Virus genome (UHGV): UHGV-0125821
Reading direction: 5' to 3' (one strand)
DNA from: a virus
DNA: 64,000 nt
Both the position numbers and the translations under genes were made by a program. Each line of letters begins with the position of its first letter. Position 1 is the stretch's first letter. Under the pieces are notes generated by a model. The model had not been told where the DNA came from. It did no database searches and saw nothing but the letters and a program-made list of their open reading frames with translations. Positions 27,872-62,286 of the stretch are shown in pieces.

Positions 27872-28163
27872 TTCATTAACTCCATACTTTACCATCTTAG
27901 CCGCGAGCGCGGTCCCTAAAACCCTTAACTTCACTGCACCGTCCTTCATGCAATCAAAATGACTTTTATGTTATAAAAATAATCAGCAAAATCAACATGA
28001 TTTAGGCCAAATTTCGGTCAAAAATAAAATCCACAAAAAGTGGTTGACACTATTTTGGAAATCACAAACTGCACATAATCCATCGCGCTAACGGCTCCCG
28101 TTGAAGGTTCTTTTGACGATTAACTTTCAGCCGAAGCGCGGTAGGGAGTCATAACGCCAAAGC

Positions 28164-45790: not shown

Positions 45791-45902
45791 ACATGAGTGT
45801 TAATAGATTTTATTTTACTAAACCTATTGACTAAATCACAAAGTAAGTATTGTTAGCCCGTCAAAAGAACCTTCACGCCGCGCCCGAATTTAGGGCTTAA
45901 CC

Positions 45903-52290: not shown

Positions 52291-52998
52291 GTGAGTATTT
52301 TCAGCAGCGTTGGTAGAACGTTGACCACCGCATTGTCATTTAACACGAAATCATTCACCAGCAACCTCATTAGCGACATTCTTGATAAAGCCATATCAGG
52401 CGGCGGGGTAAGCGGGAATTACAGTAGCGATATTGCCTACGGGAAAAATATTGTTGCTGCCGCTATGCGTATCCGTTACGCCCAGGGGTGGCAGTGGACC
52501 GTTGAAGTGGATGGCCTGAACGGCTTCGATATGTTCGTGAAGGATATCACCTACAGCAGTGGAAACATTGAGACAGAAAGCAAGGTGATCGGCAGCGTAG
52601 AATTCAGCAAGCCAACCTATGTTAGCGCCGGACCGGTCACTATGACCGTGAGGGATACCGAAGATGGCAAGATCATGGACTGGTTCAAAGAGCGTCGTTC
52701 TCGTGTAACAAATCCTGATGGAACAATAAACCTTCCTCCTGAATATCTGATGAAAATCCGTGTCTACCGGGTGACTCAGGACGGCGGAAAAGAACTGGAA
52801 GAAGAAATGCGCGTATTTCCTACGCAACTTGGGGAAATCACACGCTCACGTGATCAGGTGTCAGAGTTCTTGTCATACCCAATCACTTTCCAGAAATACA
52901 CATCCGCAGGCTCAGGTGTTTCTGCTTTGGTCAACGGTGCCGCTGGCATGGCTACAAGTGCGTTAAAGGGGGCTGTGAGTGGAGTGATCAAATTCTGA
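52291..52998 (+). CDS. hypothetical tail-associated protein
   Basis: GTG start with SD GGAGG. Confidence 0.55.
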   Translation: MSIFSSVGRTLTTALSFNTKSFTSNLISDILDKAISGGGVSGNYSSDIAYGKNIVAAAMRIRYAQGWQWTVEVDGLNGFDMFVKDITYSSGNIETESKVIGSVEFSKPTYVSAGPVTMTVRDTEDGKIMDWFKERRSRVTNPDGTINLPPEYLMKIRVYRVTQDGGKELEEEMRVFPTQLGEITRSRDQVSEFLSYPITFQKYTSAGSGVSALVNGAAGMATSALKGAVSGVIKF

Positions 52999-53087
52999 AT
53001 AGCTTTAATTATGTGTGCTGGAGGGTTGCTCATTTCCCGTCAGCACCCACGCCCTCAACGATAGCGGGTAGGGAAGGTAGCGCAATT

Positions 53088-53384
53088 TTGAGGGCATTTT
53101 TTACATCATCAATTCATCTGTAATGAAGGCATTCTTTACACATTTCAATAATATCAATCAGTTAACACAGTGAATGATAATAAAAAAGCGCAATAAGAAT
53201 GCACGATACGCACGATATTGGTTGAGGGCGATTTTTACATAGTCCTTACATATCAATACGTTATATAAAAACACAACTTGCTAATAACAAGATACATGCA
53301 ATTAAGATGTAAAAATTGCCCTCAATTGCCGATCGTTAAGGGCAAATTCTACACCTTGAGAGGGGTGTAAAAATTGCCCTTAAG
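53088..53384. repeat. iteron array downstream of repA (incA-like), five copies in both orientations
   Basis: TTGAGGGCATTTTTTACATC, TTGAGGGCGATTTTTACAT and relatives in AT-rich DNA; last copy overlaps repA stop. Confidence 0.6.
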
Positions 53385-54135
53385 ACTGCTGATAGGTAAA
53401 TTTTATCCTGGTAACTTTGCCGCCTTCCGTCACCTCTGAGAAGACTATTTTCATTTTTGTATTTTTTTCAATCTCTGCTACAGCCTTCGTTAAAAAACTT
53501 CTCTTAAATTCGGCATACCGCTGATAGCTTTTTGGTAACCCATAACGCTCCCGCATCCATTCGACGCCAAGTATGGCAAAGCCGCTTCCATCATCCTTCC
53601 TGTACTGGCATAAGGACTCATAAAGCCGCATAGAATAAGGATTTGTAAGGCGAGATACTTCGGTAAAATTCAGCCTTGTGAATCTCTTATCAAGCAGAGT
53701 AAAAAACGGCATGAGATATGGATTAAGATGAATAATGTAAGTCCCGCGACGTGGTGAATAGGCATCCTTAATCATCCAGGGATAAGACTCATAACTGTCT
53801 TCTGATTCGGTCGATTCATCAGGGTTATATATCGTAACTTTCTTCTCGCTAAGACCTGAAATGGCCTTACGAATATCCTTGCTGGCTTCAGCAGAGGGCA
53901 AATTATACATCTCTGCATATTCGTTGACCGTCAACTCACAGGCACCTGAACCAAGAACGCCATCCTTAGAAGCATAGCGAAGTCTTCCCACCACAATAAA
54001 CAACAGTCGCTTTTGGTCGCGAGTCAGGTGATAAGCAGCCTCCGTGATCTCATTGGCTTGTGCCAAACTACGACTAATAGGTGTCGCTGACTCAATCAGG
54101 CTGACGGCTTTTGCTGTTAATTCCGCTCTGTTCAT
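53380..54135 (-). CDS. repA: iteron-binding replication initiator RepA (Rep_3-like)
   Basis: TNPYSMRLYESLCQYR signature-like block; flanked by iterons; start set at internal ATG. Confidence 0.75.
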   Translation of the reverse strand: MNRAELTAKAVSLIESATPISRSLAQANEITEAAYHLTRDQKRLLFIVVGRLRYASKDGVLGSGACELTVNEYAEMYNLPSAEASKDIRKAISGLSEKKVTIYNPDESTESEDSYESYPWMIKDAYSPRRGTYIIHLNPYLMPFFTLLDKRFTRLNFTEVSRLTNPYSMRLYESLCQYRKDDGSGFAILGVEWMRERYGLPKSYQRYAEFKRSFLTKAVAEIEKNTKMKIVFSEVTEGGKVTRIKFTYQQS

Positions 54136-54159
54136 AACCCTGTGTGATCCTTCAAATGG

Positions 54160-54277
54160 TGAGGGCAATTTTTACATCACTTTGAGGGCAATTACTACAC
54201 CTTTTGAGGGCAAATCTTACACCTTCTGAGGGCAAATCTTACACCGACCGTATTTAATTGAGGGCAAATCTTACACC
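54160..54277. repeat. iteron array upstream of repA (incC/oriR-like), five direct copies
   Basis: TTGAGGGCAAATCTTACACC at 22-bp spacing; sixth inverted copy near 54400. Confidence 0.7.
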
Positions 54278-54372
54278 AGCCTCCTCTACAGCCCGCGCCA
54301 CTACTGGCTCCAGCGACGCCTAAAAAGGATCTAAAAAGGATTAAAAATGGAAAAAGGTTTATAAAAATACTC

Positions 54373-54381
54373 TGTGGATAT
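54373..54381. promoter_or_regulatory. DnaA-box-like 9-mer
   Basis: TGTGGATAT, 8 of 9 to TGTGGATAA, beside AAAAAGGAT repeats. Confidence 0.4.
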
Positions 54382-54523
54382 GTGAGTAGCGTCACTTAAG
54401 GTGTAAAAATCACCCTCAATAATCGCTTCTCGACCGGCAAAGATCTTCATTCAATCCCCATCGCAAATCACACACTCCCTATCCTCTGGAAAATGAACAG
54501 ATACCTGCTTTTCGGAGGAATAA

Positions 54524-55345
54524 TTGAACATTCCAAAATTCCCATTGCCTTCCCGTCCTGAGACAGAAATTCAGTTCCACGCCCCTACCGTGAAGGATGC
54601 GCTGAAATATTCTGACCTGAACCCGGCAGAAGATGAGGCAACTACTACAGAGTACCTTAACTCTATGCAGGATGGTGAAATTAACGACAGTGCTAACTGG
54701 ACAGTTCAGGATCGCAGAACTGCTCTTTGGTGGATATTTGTTAATTCGCGCCCCGATGCAGTAATGACCTACTCCTATGAGTGCAGTCACTGCGGTAATA
54801 CGCATCATGCAGATATTAACCTGAGCGACCTGGCCCAAACAGTAGAAATACTCACTGTACCTCCTTACGTGAAAACCAACGTACCAGTAAATGGAGTACC
54901 AACTGACTGGATACTTAAACCATTAACCGGGAAAGGCGCGGAACTCCTTGAACGAATGCGAGCGTCACTTCCTGATATGAAAAGCCCCGAATACAGTGCT
55001 GGCGTGGCACGGATGCGAATTGCTGAACTCGCTTTATGCACGGCGCTTGAAGACGATCCGGAGGACTTCACGCAGGCCGCTAACCGACGCTTTGACATCA
55101 TTGAAAGCATGGCGCTTGAAACCGAATTTACCCCGCTTGTGGCTCGCATACAGCTTATGCAAAAAGACCTACGCCACGGCCTGAAAATGTCTATTGAGAG
55201 AGGCTCAAGCCGACTGATCCTGCCTCCGCAACATTGCAAAAACGCTAAGGAGGGTGCAGATGTGACAACCACACTGTACGTCCCCTTTCTCAATAGAGAG
55301 TTTATCCCATCAATTAGATCTGAATGGATGGCTAACCATTATTAA
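54524..55345 (+). CDS. hypothetical protein upstream of tape measure
   Basis: 273-aa ORF, TTG start in track. Confidence 0.55.
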   Translation: MNIPKFPLPSRPETEIQFHAPTVKDALKYSDLNPAEDEATTTEYLNSMQDGEINDSANWTVQDRRTALWWIFVNSRPDAVMTYSYECSHCGNTHHADINLSDLAQTVEILTVPPYVKTNVPVNGVPTDWILKPLTGKGAELLERMRASLPDMKSPEYSAGVARMRIAELALCTALEDDPEDFTQAANRRFDIIESMALETEFTPLVARIQLMQKDLRHGLKMSIERGSSRLILPPQHCKNAKEGADVTTTLYVPFLNREFIPSIRSEWMANHY

Positions 55346-55359
55346 CAACCTGACTCTGT

Positions 55360-58300
55360 ATGGATATCAGCCCGTTAGTGACGTTGAACAATTGCCACAA
55401 TGGCGAGCACTCCATATGTCAAAAGCCCTGGAAGAAAAATACAAAGCTCAAGCCGGGAAACGTTGTCGCCGCTGGTAAAAGAGAGGTTATTTTGAAAGAG
55501 AATAAAGACCGTATCGCAATAATTGACGCTATTCAGGGGGCGAGCACAAACGAACTTAAGGCTCTTGCTGAGATCAAAGATGCCATTCTTTCTGGGGCAA
55601 GCACCATAACTCAACAGGCCGAAAGGCAAGGCAGAGTTAGCAACAGACTATCACGCAGGCGTAAAGAGTACGAGCAAAGTACATCTGATAGCGTTAGAGA
55701 TGTCCAAACTAACCCATATAAAAAACGTCTCCCTGCTAAAAAGGAAAGGGCACCGTTAAACCAAACCGTGGACCGCTCTATCGTTGCAACGAACACACCA
55801 GAAAGTGTTCGCTCCGTGCAATCACGTCAGACCATCCGAAAATCGGACGGTTTTATACCGGTAGCTGCTAATTCAGCCCCTCTTGAACCACAATCCCCCC
55901 AAAGTCTAAAAGGCCCGCTGCGGGATAGTAATGGACGTTTTGTATCCCAAAAAAGCAATGAGGATGTAGCCAGAAAAAAAGAATTGCAGAACGCACGTAA
56001 AGCCGACGCAAAATTACAAGCTGGCTTTCTCAGAAAGCTAGGTTCCATTATGGGGGTAGATGGCAATCGGTCTTCCAGTGAAGAGTCTTTAACAAATGCA
56101 GCTGGTGTCGGTGCTGGTGGGCCGTTCTGGATGGCGGCTCGTGGCATGTACGACATAACTAAAGAGATCACAGGTAAAGCAGAATCTCTTAAAGAATGGG
56201 TAGAAAAGGGGAAAAAAGAAACATCAACCTCGAAAGCAATATCACCAGTAATTACTTATCCGGCGGCGGTGAATTCTCAAAAAGCAACATCTGCAAAAGC
56301 GTTCAATAACGCTGTTGAGACAAAATCCGCACAAGCAGTAGAAGAGCAAACCAAAATCCTTCAGACCAATGACAACAAAATAATTGATGGTCTGGAAAAT
56401 GTTTCTGACGAGATAGTTAAGCTTCGGAAATCAGTGTCTTCTGGAAATAAGTTCGGCTTAAGTGATCTCTGGAAAAATCGAGCAAGCAGAAGAAATAAAA
56501 TCAATATTGGTGATCAGACGGGAAAAAATAAACGGAACAAATCGAAAAGGAAAGGACGCAATCTTGGGAAAAAAGCACTCTCCGCTGGCGAAAAAGTTGC
56601 TGCCGGTAGCGCTGCGGCTGGCACTGGTGTCGGAGCAGCAAAAGTAGTTAAAAATAAGATCAGCAAACCCAAAGATGTAAGCACTATCAGCGATACATCA
56701 AAGGGGATTGCAAAGGAAACAAAAAATACTGCTAAGGCCGTGAAGTCAGCTGGTGTTGTGGCTGAAGATGCCACCATTAAAACCGGCGAAGCCATTGCAA
56801 AGAAAAAAACTGAATCTGTAGCCCTCAAAAGTGCTGCAAAAATAGGTGTTAAATCAGCAGCATCCACAGCGGCAAGAGCGGTCCCTATCATCGGTTCGCT
56901 GGCAATGGCTGGATATGACGCCATAGATGGTTACACAGATACAGAGGCGCAAAAGGCAGCCTTTGGCTTAAGTGATGATAATGCTGTATCCACACAGCAA
57001 AAAACCGCTTATGCAGCAGCTAATGTGCTTGATATGGGCGGCTTAGTGTCGGGTGCAACCAACCTAATAGGCAAAGGGATTTCTGCGTTAGGCTTTGAAG
57101 GGGCAGGTGAAAAACTTCAGAATTTTAACACTGGAGATATTGCTCGTGACATAAATAGTTCTATAGACACGACAAAAACCGTATTCAGCAGCCTAAAAGA
57201 ATCGTTCTCATCAAGCAGCGAAGGCACTGCGCAGGTTAAGAAAGCCGTTGAAGATGGCACCAAGCAAACGGTAACCGCAATTAATAACCTGGGCCGACAG
57301 CTACAAGGCGGGCGTGATGGTGAAGATGGTGTTGGTGAGCACGGGTATACTTCCCCGGCTGAATTTAATGCGCCTACCAGTAACACCATTGCTGCGGATC
57401 TGAATATTGGTGGCAGCAACGCTAAAAACCGCAATTATCGGAATAATAATCTCGGGAACCTTGTTTTCGCCAATCAGGAAGGGGCGACGCTGGAAGCACC
57501 GAATGCAAAAGGTGAACAGCGTTTTGCTCGATTCAACACGCCTGAAGAAGGGATCAGGGCGTTGGCAAACCAAGTGTCAAGCTATTACAACGGCACCAGT
57601 GCCGCAGCAGGACATCAGAAGTTACAGACGGTATCAAGCATCATTTCCAAATGGGCGCCGCCAAATGAGAACAATACCAATCAATATATTGATAACGTCA
57701 GTAAATATCTTGGCGTCTCGCCTAATGAAAAAATAGACGTCAGCAACCCAGAGGTTATGACGCAATTAGTTCGTGCAATAGCGACGAAAGAAGGTGGAAA
57801 CCCGGCGGTTAACAATGAGTTCATAAAGAATGCTCTTGGGGCATTCAACGCAAATACTGGTCGTTGGGAAGGGCGGTTCTCCGATGAAACATTGGCGCGG
57901 CTTAATAAAATTCAGCAAGAGAATGGCGGTCAACTAATTGCTCGTGATTCGCAATATAGCGTTGGTCGCAAGGTGAAATATGCTGATGGTACATCTCCAG
58001 CACAACCTGTATTGAATGCAGTTCCAACAGCAACACCTAAGCCAATTGAAGTTGCACAACATGCCCAGGCCGCCAAAAAGCCACAAAAAAAAGGTAACCA
58101 ACCACAACCGATTAATCCAGAGAACGCTGATGTTAATACCGGCTCTCCATCGAGTTTGCTTGAGCGGTTAATCGCAATAAATGAAAGCGGAATCAGTGGT
58201 GCAAGTAATTTATTTGGCGGCGCGGCTACCAGCCTTGCTGGAACAAGTCTGGACCTGGTAAAGGATTTTGCGTCGGCTACTTCGTTTGGTTCTATATCTT

Positions 58301-59529
58301 CGCTTTCCGAAAAAGCGAAAGGAATGGATCAGGCTCTTACTGAAAAGATATCCGGCTTAACCGGTAAATCTTTTGGATTTAAAAAAGCTTCTCAAGTGGC
58401 TGATATCGCAACAGCCATACAACAAAAACGCACTGTTAATCACGATACAGAAATCATTGATCTACTTCCGGGAGATCAAGTATCCCCTTCTACTCCGAAA
58501 ACTCCACAGCAGGAGCAGGCTCTAGCAATCAGCCAGGCTATGGCGGGCTTTTCGTCTGCAGCGCCAGCACCGAAAACCCCACAGCAGGAGCAGGCTCTAG
58601 CAATCAGCCAGGCTATGGCGGGCTTTTCATCTGCAGCGCCAGCACCGAAAACCCCACAGCAGGAGCAGGCTCTAGCAATCAGTCAGGCTATGGCGGGCTT
58701 TTCGTCTGCAGCGCCAGCACCGAAAACCCCACAGCAGGAGCAGGCTCTAGCAATCAACCAGGCTATGGCGGGCTTTTCGTCTGCAGCACCAGCACCGAAA
58801 ACCCCACAGCAGGAGCAGGCTCTAGCAATCAACCAGGCTATGTCGGGAGCTGCGCCAGTAGTTACCTCTGGAAAACGAACTATCACGGCACCAAGTGATG
58901 TGCAGATTTATGACAACGGCTACAAGGTGGTTACAGGTGAGGATAAGAGCTTCTTTGGTTCGCTATTTGATTCCACGGTGTCAGGGCTTAAACAGGCAGG
59001 AACCGCAGTAATTCCTGCCGTTGGCGATAACCTTTCACGACTTGTTGGGGGGATTGATAGTACAGGGATATTGAACGATCTTGTAATGCAGTCTACTGGG
59101 CAGAATAGTGCGATTGCGCGAGCTATTAGCCCATTAACAAGAAATGTTGGAGACTGGCTGAATGGGGGGATTCAACAAACCGCTAATAGCATTAGGGGAA
59201 TAGCAACTGGTGCCAATAACGCCATATTTGGCTCTGCTTCAGCTGTGCAAGAACCTTTTCTTGCTATGCCGCCACAACTCCCTACTGTAACCGATCTCGC
59301 ACGAAGCGGAATAAGACAACCATTAACTACTGACACTATAAATAACGATCCTGCTATGTTGAAGGCGCTGGATAACATCTGCTCTATCCTGAACGATCTG
59401 CTGAATGTGAACAAGAACAATACAAAAGGCGATCCGGATAATGTTGTCAAAACATCGCAGCCGCAGCCGCGACCACGTGCGAGCACAACTATTAATGACC
59501 AGTCGCTGGATGCTCTGCTTGAGGATTAA
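55360..59529 (+). CDS. tail tape measure protein candidate
   Basis: 1389 aa, Ala/Gly/Lys-rich, upstream of baseplate genes; contains 25-aa tandem repeats. Confidence 0.7.
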   Translation: MDISPLVTLNNCHNGEHSICQKPWKKNTKLKPGNVVAAGKREVILKENKDRIAIIDAIQGASTNELKALAEIKDAILSGASTITQQAERQGRVSNRLSRRRKEYEQSTSDSVRDVQTNPYKKRLPAKKERAPLNQTVDRSIVATNTPESVRSVQSRQTIRKSDGFIPVAANSAPLEPQSPQSLKGPLRDSNGRFVSQKSNEDVARKKELQNARKADAKLQAGFLRKLGSIMGVDGNRSSSEESLTNAAGVGAGGPFWMAARGMYDITKEITGKAESLKEWVEKGKKETSTSKAISPVITYPAAVNSQKATSAKAFNNAVETKSAQAVEEQTKILQTNDNKIIDGLENVSDEIVKLRKSVSSGNKFGLSDLWKNRASRRNKINIGDQTGKNKRNKSKRKGRNLGKKALSAGEKVAAGSAAAGTGVGAAKVVKNKISKPKDVSTISDTSKGIAKETKNTAKAVKSAGVVAEDATIKTGEAIAKKKTESVALKSAAKIGVKSAASTAARAVPIIGSLAMAGYDAIDGYTDTEAQKAAFGLSDDNAVSTQQKTAYAAANVLDMGGLVSGATNLIGKGISALGFEGAGEKLQNFNTGDIARDINSSIDTTKTVFSSLKESFSSSSEGTAQVKKAVEDGTKQTVTAINNLGRQLQGGRDGEDGVGEHGYTSPAEFNAPTSNTIAADLNIGGSNAKNRNYRNNNLGNLVFANQEGATLEAPNAKGEQRFARFNTPEEGIRALANQVSSYYNGTSAAAGHQKLQTVSSIISKWAPPNENNTNQYIDNVSKYLGVSPNEKIDVSNPEVMTQLVRAIATKEGGNPAVNNEFIKNALGAFNANTGRWEGRFSDETLARLNKIQQENGGQLIARDSQYSVGRKVKYADGTSPAQPVLNAVPTATPKPIEVAQHAQAAKKPQKKGNQPQPINPENADVNTGSPSSLLERLIAINESGISGASNLFGGAATSLAGTSLDLVKDFASATSFGSISSLSEKAKGMDQALTEKISGLTGKSFGFKKASQVADIATAIQQKRTVNHDTEIIDLLPGDQVSPSTPKTPQQEQALAISQAMAGFSSAAPAPKTPQQEQALAISQAMAGFSSAAPAPKTPQQEQALAISQAMAGFSSAAPAPKTPQQEQALAINQAMAGFSSAAPAPKTPQQEQALAINQAMSGAAPVVTSGKRTITAPSDVQIYDNGYKVVTGEDKSFFGSLFDSTVSGLKQAGTAVIPAVGDNLSRLVGGIDSTGILNDLVMQSTGQNSAIARAISPLTRNVGDWLNGGIQQTANSIRGIATGANNAIFGSASAVQEPFLAMPPQLPTVTDLARSGIRQPLTTDTINNDPAMLKALDNICSILNDLLNVNKNNTKGDPDNVVKTSQPQPRPRASTTINDQSLDALLED
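58495..58869 (+). repeat. in-frame 75-bp tandem repeat, about 4.6 copies
   Basis: unit encodes PKTPQQEQALAISQAMAGFSSAAPA; copies differ by 1-3 substitutions. Confidence 0.85.
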
Positions 59530-62192: not shown

Positions 62193-62286
62193 TAATTCTT
62201 CCCCCAAATGCGGGGGAAGAACAACGGAAATCACAAACTGAGCATACTCTCCTTTGGTTCATTGCTTATGAAGGGGCTATGTTCGT

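Follow-up and report, generated by a model that had tools for sequence, protein, structure and literature searches.

A replication initiator gene flanked by iterons lies in the middle of the tail genes of the virus genome UHGV-0125821, and its presence there raises two questions: to which replicon family does it belong, and what does it do in a block of late genes? We addressed these questions in a 64,000-nucleotide stretch of the genome (referred to below as the window). The original prediction for the locus was of a P1-style iteron replicon built around a RepA-like initiator. We consider it highly probable that positions 53089–54418 of the window constitute a theta replicon of low copy number by which a D6-type prophage is maintained as a plasmid, and that this replicon is a diverged relative of the RepFIA replicon of the F plasmid. 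The sequence features, homology, conservation and position behind this conclusion were read directly from the DNA of the window and of its relatives.

The initiator protein, its iterons and the origin

The initiator gene, rep, begins with an ATG codon at 54135 and ends at 53380 both in phage D6 and in RefSeq plasmid records. Both domains expected of a Rep_3 (RepE-type) initiator (WH1 and WH2; PF01051 and PF21205) scored above the Pfam gathering thresholds, Rep3_N with an E value of 3.4e-29 (102.5 bits, cutoff 22.4) and Rep3_C with an E value of 9.8e-16 (58.2 bits, cutoff 21.1). The protein (Rep) aligned with F RepE at 50% identity over 228 residues (E = 2e-86), both proteins being 251 residues long, and its best matches in the PDB were the mini-F RepE structures (1REP, E = 1.4e-73), followed distantly by R6K pi and pPS10 RepA. 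In contrast, BLASTP comparison of Rep with P1 RepA, the IncY initiator, gave no significant similarity (E = 0.057). Hence, the supposed RepA-like protein is indeed an iteron initiator, but one having homology to F RepE and not to P1 RepA. The translated matches in PLSDB fell into a tight group of at least 95% identity (108 records) and a group of IncFIA RepE proteins at about 50% identity with only one record between them, and thus we regard Rep as a distinct sister lineage of RepE rather than as RepE proper.

A separate observation concerns the position of RepE Arg118, which is an Asp residue in the window Rep (PWMIKDAYSP; FIKRAHSP in F RepE). Arg118 is changed to Pro in RepE54, the monomeric form used for crystal structures. 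The Asp residue might affect the dimer–monomer balance of Rep.

When the window was searched with the 19-bp iteron consensus TGAGGGCAAWTYTTACAYC (written for the + strand) and up to three mismatches were allowed, 12 matches were found, all within 53089–54418, where 0.11 per window would be expected by chance; 12 matches were reached in 0 of 100 shuffles. Five direct copies form the array on the origin side of rep, starting at 54160, 54183, 54205, 54227 and 54259 and thus spaced 23, 22, 22 and 32 bp apart, and they are oriented as are the iterons of F ori2/incB. The five upstream direct iterons of the original prediction are therefore present, although the 22-bp period claimed for them holds for only four copies, the fifth (54259) being set apart. 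The first iteron was also said to overlap the start region of the gene. This would require an unlikely TTG start codon at 54168, whereas the ATG annotated in D6 and RefSeq lies 24 nt from the last iteron of the array. Direct repeats of roughly 19–22 bp beside the gene are a property of replicons with Rep_3/RepE-type initiators, and this locus has them.

Beyond the 3' end of rep lies a second cluster of iterons. Five more copies in mixed orientation in AT-rich DNA had been predicted there, and five good copies were found in DNA of 31–39% G+C (the flanks have about 48%). Along the direction of rep, from 53382 to 53089, the copies of this control side run inverted, direct, inverted, direct, direct (weak) and direct. 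Three sites had been missed earlier: the weak copy at 53124, an inverted copy at 54400–54418 that lies by itself at the far edge of the origin, and an iteron-like site within rep (53893–53911). The site within rep departs from the consensus at four positions and is not matched at the corresponding codons of F repE. It may have arisen by chance or may be an internal Rep-binding site.

The origin DNA likewise resembles that of F. Past the iterons and a G+C-rich spacer is an AT-rich block in which AAAAAGGAT occurs twice among the A-rich repeats (about 54322–54341), followed by a DnaA box at 54373–54381; the prediction of a DnaA-box-like 9-mer and repeats just beyond the array was thus borne out. 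The DnaA box and its flank align with F ori2 (CACATATCCACAGAG against CACTTATCCACGGGG), the elements TATTTTTATAA and TTTTTAGATC..TTTTTAG are common to the two origins, and the window and F iterons have the 3' half ATTGCCCTCA in common. Their order and orientation with respect to rep also agree with those of F ori2: DnaA box, TATTTTTATAA, TTTTTAGATC..TTTTTAG and then the iterons with their ATTGCCCTCA halves.

The overall plan is therefore that of RepFIA (ori2/incB–repE–incC): DnaA box, AT-rich block, direct 19-bp iterons spaced about 22 bp apart, rep and a second iteron cluster. The two replicons nonetheless differ in several respects. The 5' halves of the iterons are different (GGTGTAAG/GATGTAAA against TGTGACAA), with the distance from TGT to GCCC being one base shorter. 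F has four origin iterons and two DnaA boxes, whereas the window has five iterons plus the inverted copy beyond its single DnaA box. All five incC copies of F are inverted relative to ori2, whereas the window control iterons are mixed and have sites for integration host factor (IHF) between them. Finally, F repE is linked to sopABC, whereas the window rep is embedded in phage tail genes. The changed iteron 5' half would be read by the WH2 domain, and the differing halves predict that the replicon is compatible with IncFIA plasmids. Given these comparisons we consider the ancestry of the replicon to be F-like, the term P1-style being fair for its architecture only.

Table 1 Features of the replicon and its surroundings. 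Positions are those of the window unless another sequence is named.
Feature	Position	Strand	Remarks
Tail tube gene, P1 tub homologue	52291–52998	+	left flank
Inverted pair of P1 (IncY) RepA-type iteron-like sequences	53011–53050		tub-proximal edge; not cognate to the resident Rep
Control-side iteron cluster, incC/incA analogue	53089–53382	mixed	AT-rich; first copy overlaps the rep stop codon
Control-side copies	53364 (-), 53337 (+), 53306 (-), 53223 (+), 53124 (+, weak), 53089 (+)	mixed	from repeat search
IHF consensus site TATCAATCAGTTA	53152–53164	+	between control-side iterons
IHF consensus site TATCAATACGTTA	53251–53263	+	between control-side iterons
rep gene	53380–54135	-	251-residue Rep_3 (WH1 + WH2) initiator, RepE family
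Iteron-like site inside rep, AGAGGGCAAATTATACATC	53893–53911	+	4 mismatches to consensus; same orientation as origin iterons
Origin-side array of five direct 19-bp iterons	54160–54277	-	GGTGTAAGATTTGCCCTCA in rep sense; from repeat searches
G+C-rich spacer, iterons to AT-rich block	54278–54321		variable among relatives
AT-rich block with A5/T5 repeats and one GATC	54322–54372	-	presumed DNA-unwinding element; aligns with the AT-rich region of F ori2
DnaA box ATATCCACA	54373–54381	-	matches TTATCCACA at 8 of 9 positions; counterpart of the F ori2 DnaA box in the alignment
Outlying inverted iteron	54400–54418	-	beyond the DnaA box, far edge of origin
Candidate D6-type late promoter AAATCACAC-N6-TATCCT	54465–54485	+	38 nt upstream of pmgB; right edge of cassette
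pmgB-like gene	54524–55345	+	right flank
sit tape-measure/transglycosylase gene	55360–59529		after the pmgB-like gene
Copies of AAATCACA-N7-TATNNT	28059–28079, 45833–45853, 54465–54485, 62228–62248	+	upstream of the mat, gene 23, pmgB and R homologues
p0111-type cassette in CP042620.1	locus L010, 3326–4780		equivalent of window 53327–54465

Distribution and conservation of the replicon

The region is not peculiar to this genome. Positions 53000–54520 are 99.4% identical in DNA sequence to Escherichia phage D6 and 100% identical to several E. coli plasmids of about 92–95 kb, and the region has matches in 111 PLSDB records (Escherichia, Salmonella and Shigella), 108 of them being non-mobilizable. 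In the four D6-type records inspected in detail (about 88–93 kb) the MOB-suite type rep_cluster_1704 was the sole replicon type listed. Rep is 100% identical to the product of D6 orf42, which is a putative plasmid replication initiator labeled 'replication initiation protein; similar to P1 gene repA?; pfam01051'. The near-identity to D6 extends across the replicon and its neighborhood (tub, rep, pmgB–sit), and the neighbors are homologues of P1 late genes; therefore, we assign the window to the D6-type phage-plasmids, subgroup P1-g2 of Pfeifer et al. (PMC7969092). The orf42 region of D6 and that of D6-like plasmids such as pYU39_89 (99.3% identity to the window) are the same element with the same flanking genes. 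They differ from the window only at the strain level, for example in the number of 75-bp repeats in the neighboring sit gene.

We aligned the window with three diverged D6-type plasmids, with identities to the window over 53000–54520 of 90.6% for E. coli pPSS-10_3, 90.6% for MINF_7C plasmid 4 and 84.5% for the plasmid of E. fergusonii RHB44-C21. All four sequences have the tub–rep–pmgB arrangement. On the origin side they are nearly invariant in all five direct iterons, in the inverted copy at the far edge, in the DnaA box and in the AT-rich block, whereas the G+C-rich spacer varies. The DNA downstream of rep is heavily diverged in the relatives and there the iterons, including the weak copy at 53124, stand out as conserved islands.

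The same is true of the two IHF sites. Perfect matches to the IHF consensus WATCAANNNNTTR number eight in the window against 3.6 expected, two of which are situated 99 bp apart among the control-side iterons, and both of these are kept in the relatives despite their diverged surroundings. The conservation of iterons and origin elements amid diverged spacers therefore argues for purifying selection on these sites. This indicates selection on protein-binding sites and is the main indirect support for a functional replicon, to which the single replicon type of the four inspected records adds.

Proposed mechanism and competing explanations

Our proposal takes Rep binding, origin opening, autorepression, handcuffing and copy number from the behavior of mini-F and P1. 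Rep monomers would bind the five direct iterons at 54160–54277; in the RepE system monomers arise by chaperone-dependent conversion of dimers. Host DnaA would bind at 54373–54381, probably together with a bending protein, and Rep and DnaA would then open the AT-rich block (54322–54372) to allow loading of DnaB and the replisome. Rep bound to the proximal iterons would repress its own promoter. The six downstream iterons (53089–53382), bent by IHF, would titrate Rep and pair with the origin (handcuffing), and titration and handcuffing together would hold the copy number near one or two. A search of 52800–54700 against Rfam (E ≤ 1) found no RNA family and thus no sign of a known antisense-RNA control element.

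Several observations weigh against the proposal. The RepE equivalog model of NCBIfam (NF010305) scored Rep at 280.6 bits, below its cutoff of 342. Taken alone the DnaA box is not significant, since the window contains 10 such 8-of-9 matches where 14.75 would be expected. The mixed orientation of the downstream iterons is not that of F incC. Nothing in the window corresponds to the F operator, in which the RepE dimer binds inverted half-iterons that separate the iterons from the repE start, and a scan for sigma-70 promoter consensus sequences showed no rep promoter. Experimental data on replication, copy number or incompatibility were not found in the literature searched, nor was a functional dissection of a D6-type replicon (the D6 genome paper was not covered). 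As the F-type operator is missing, we based the autoregulation step on P1-type replicons and not on F. The lack of a separate operator and the mere 24 nt between the array and the ATG codon suggest that the rep promoter is probably in or next to the proximal iterons, as in P1.

P1 is also the obvious point of comparison for biological role, being a related myovirus whose oriR/incC–repA–incA (IncY) replicon likewise maintains the prophage as a plasmid. The layouts match: P1 has five origin iterons spaced about 21–22 bp apart and control iterons of mixed orientation after the gene, with three incA copies pointing one way and six the other, and the P1 repA promoter lies inside the incC iterons as the window promoter probably does. 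Hence, the claim that the locus mirrors incC–repA–incA was sound as to organization, two iteron arrays flanking an initiator, but did not extend to homology. P1 has five GATC heptamers and tandem DnaA boxes, whereas the AT-rich region of the window lacks the five heptamers and is adjoined by one DnaA box. P1 iterons are of the GATGTGTGCTGGAGGGAAA type, whereas those flanking the window rep are of the type TGAGGGCAA..TACACC, and the window has only two P1-type sequences, both at the edge of the module (53011–53050).

That the replicon is a true oriR–repA–incA homologue of the P1 RepA (IncY) family, relocated within the genome, would account for the shared organization, for the two P1-type sequences and for the question posed in the D6 label of orf42. 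However, Rep is half identical to F RepE while having no significant similarity to P1 RepA, the iterons have the F-type ATTGCCCTCA core rather than the P1 type, and the AT-rich region aligns with F ori2. We consider P1 ancestry extremely improbable, and at the level of sequence homology it is refuted. A reading with a still smaller chance of being correct is that this is the replicon called p0111 by PlasmidFinder. Phage-plasmids of the P1 group have been typed as IncY or p0111 (PMC11165635), and RefSeq uses one product name, 'RepB family plasmid replication initiator protein', for the window and p0111 initiators. The p0111 reference, pO111_2, nevertheless encodes a different Rep, a 294-residue protein of the P1 RepA family located beside parAB at the P1 position in a genome having the P1 gene order with tub and pmgB adjacent. 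BLASTP comparison of this protein (RepB of AP010962, identical to NC_013370) with the window Rep gave no significant similarity (E = 0.029), which refutes the p0111 reading. The Rep of E. coli plasmid CP042620.1, also of 294 residues, is 85% identical to the pO111_2 protein and 41% identical to P1 RepA. Moreover, MOB-suite places the two types in different clusters, 1704 for the window type and 2164 for p0111, and the replication genes of the D6 group are reported to be absent from plasmid typing databases, with D6 repB serving as a screening marker (bioRxiv 10.1101/2025.09.12.675607).

Two further explanations accept the F-like ancestry and question the function. The rep cassette could be an inactive relic, with maintenance of the plasmid falling to another replicon such as repL, which D6-type genomes also carry, or to an unrecognized origin. 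No experiment on the window replicon was found in the literature searched. However, the reading frame is intact, 102 plasmid records encode its product at 99% identity or more, and the conserved sites amid diverged spacers point to purifying selection. In addition, D6 has no other annotated initiator of the Rep_3 or plasmid type, and according to the P1 annotation repL serves lytic replication in that phage. We therefore judge a relic very unlikely. Somewhat less improbable, although still unlikely, is that the downstream cluster with its IHF sites acts as a second origin or a replication enhancer rather than in copy control. In R6K several origins rely on iterons in combination with IHF, and the mixed orientation and the two conserved IHF consensus sites between the iterons would suit such a role. 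However, the downstream side has no DnaA box and no AT-rich block like that of ori2, and the rep-distal arrays of F (incC) and P1 (incA) are negative control elements, as is established and, for incA, annotated. Moreover, in CP042620.1 four distal copies persist as orphans beside a foreign replicon and thus do not suffice to define a replicon. We retain the reading of an F-like replicon having its copy-control iterons downstream of rep.

Location among the late genes and replicon exchange

The neighbors of rep, all homologues of P1 late genes, are in the order 23, 22, 21, pmgG, bplB, pmgC, tub, rep, pmgB, sit, pmgA, bplA, 16, R and S. The original placement of the replicon between tube-associated genes and the tape measure gene is thus correct, with tub on the left and the pmgB-like gene followed by sit on the right. 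In P1 tub and pmgB are only 14 bp apart within the LPsit late operon, and the plasmid replicon is located between gene 23 and upfA, where it is joined to parAB–parS. About 10 kb separates rep from the partition genes in D6, and the replication and partition genes of the P1-g2 subgroup have been described as 'separated by 14 persistent genes' (PMC7969092).

How the genes on either side of rep are transcribed is suggested by a repeated motif. Four copies of AAATCACA-N7-TATNNT were found where 0.58 would be expected by chance for the window, all of them on the + strand, and the copy at 54465–54485 is invariant in the relatives. The P1 annotation places late promoters before gene 23 and R. A P1 late promoter also precedes mat. 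The P1 late-promoter consensus AAGTGACTT-N4-TANNNT is essentially absent from the window, which is fitted instead by AAATCACA-N7-TATNNT. We propose the latter as a candidate D6-type late (Lpa-dependent) promoter, unlike that of P1. The copy at the right edge of the cassette would, if it is such a promoter, permit expression of pmgB–sit independently of the genes to the left. The cassette seems to lie, in antisense orientation, in the interval between two late transcription units, gene 23 through tub to the left and pmgB–sit onward to the right. A terminator scan gave only weak matches, no more numerous than in shuffled sequences, and RNA folding just after tub showed no notable terminator hairpin (z-score 0.28).

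Other features of these genomes deserve mention. The sit gene contains 4.7 tandem copies of a 75-bp unit (58495–58847) encoding the 25-residue repeat PKTPQQEQALAISQAMAGFSSAAPA. The gene is 3783 nt long in D6, 4170 nt in the window and 4437 nt in NZ_CP032875, which suggests that the length differences among relatives reflect variable repeat number. In D6 an annotated full-length glutaminyl-tRNA synthetase (GlnS-like) gene adjoins the partition genes (locus L005, 4026–5687) and three tRNA genes are annotated elsewhere, both being unusual cargo for a phage-plasmid.

The gap between tub and pmgB can hold other replicons. Plasmid CP042620.1 has a D6 backbone with the same tub and pmgB genes, but the DNA corresponding to window positions 53327–54465 is replaced by a p0111-type cassette, and homology resumes at the 54465–54485 motif. 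The p0111-type replicon is also an iteron replicon of P1-group phage-plasmids and here takes the slot of the window rep, although its initiator is unrelated in sequence and its iterons are different. The cassette brings its own iterons (ATCGCATATAGTCAACATT, with a period of 21–22 bp), GATC repeats and a DnaA box, and the D6-type iterons left as orphans are accompanied by both IHF sites. Thus, replicon cassettes can evidently be swapped at the tub–pmgB site, as judged by comparison of these sequences, and the swap is consistent with the idea that phage-plasmids evade incompatibility by changing replicons.

A trace of a third iteron system lies at the tub-proximal edge of the module. The first member of the inverted P1-type pair (53011–53028) contains a 16-mer identical to P1 incA copy 4, and the second member is at 53033–53050. 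In P1 the core TGTGTGCTGGNRGG is confined to incA and incC, and in D6-type loci to this one place; the remaining 71 kb of D6, the F locus examined and the two pO111_2 loci examined all lack it. The pair is conserved in place in D6-type plasmids; it may have been left by an earlier replicon, or it may serve as a decoy for P1 RepA. The slot has therefore been associated with three iteron systems: the resident RepE-like cassette, the p0111-type cassette of CP042620.1 and the P1/IncY-type pair. A speculative extension, which we think has a small but appreciable chance of being right, is that the gap is an exchangeable slot in which orphan and foreign iterons are kept as decoys that titrate the initiators of competitors such as P1. 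If so, the decoy iterons would be more than relics and would serve as a weapon in plasmid incompatibility.

The element itself is already known, its initiator being annotated in D6 and in more than 100 RefSeq plasmids, and the association of rep with iterons has been stated for pYU39_89 (PMC6799933). The place of rep in these genomes has also figured in a published comparison (PMC7969092). The homology to F ori2, the IHF sites, the cassette swap and the relics of P1-type iterons may be undescribed, and these would be incremental additions. NZ_CP027382 (36 kb), considered as a natural mini-replicon, proved uninformative, being a linear, incomplete assembly; the annotated origin map could guide the construction of a mini-replicon. 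As D6-type replicons are missing from the typing databases, the assignment to a family matters for typing. Recognition of the replicon as a relative of F RepE/ori2, and not of P1 RepA or p0111, bears both on how such phage-plasmids would be typed and on the plasmids with which they would be predicted to be incompatible.

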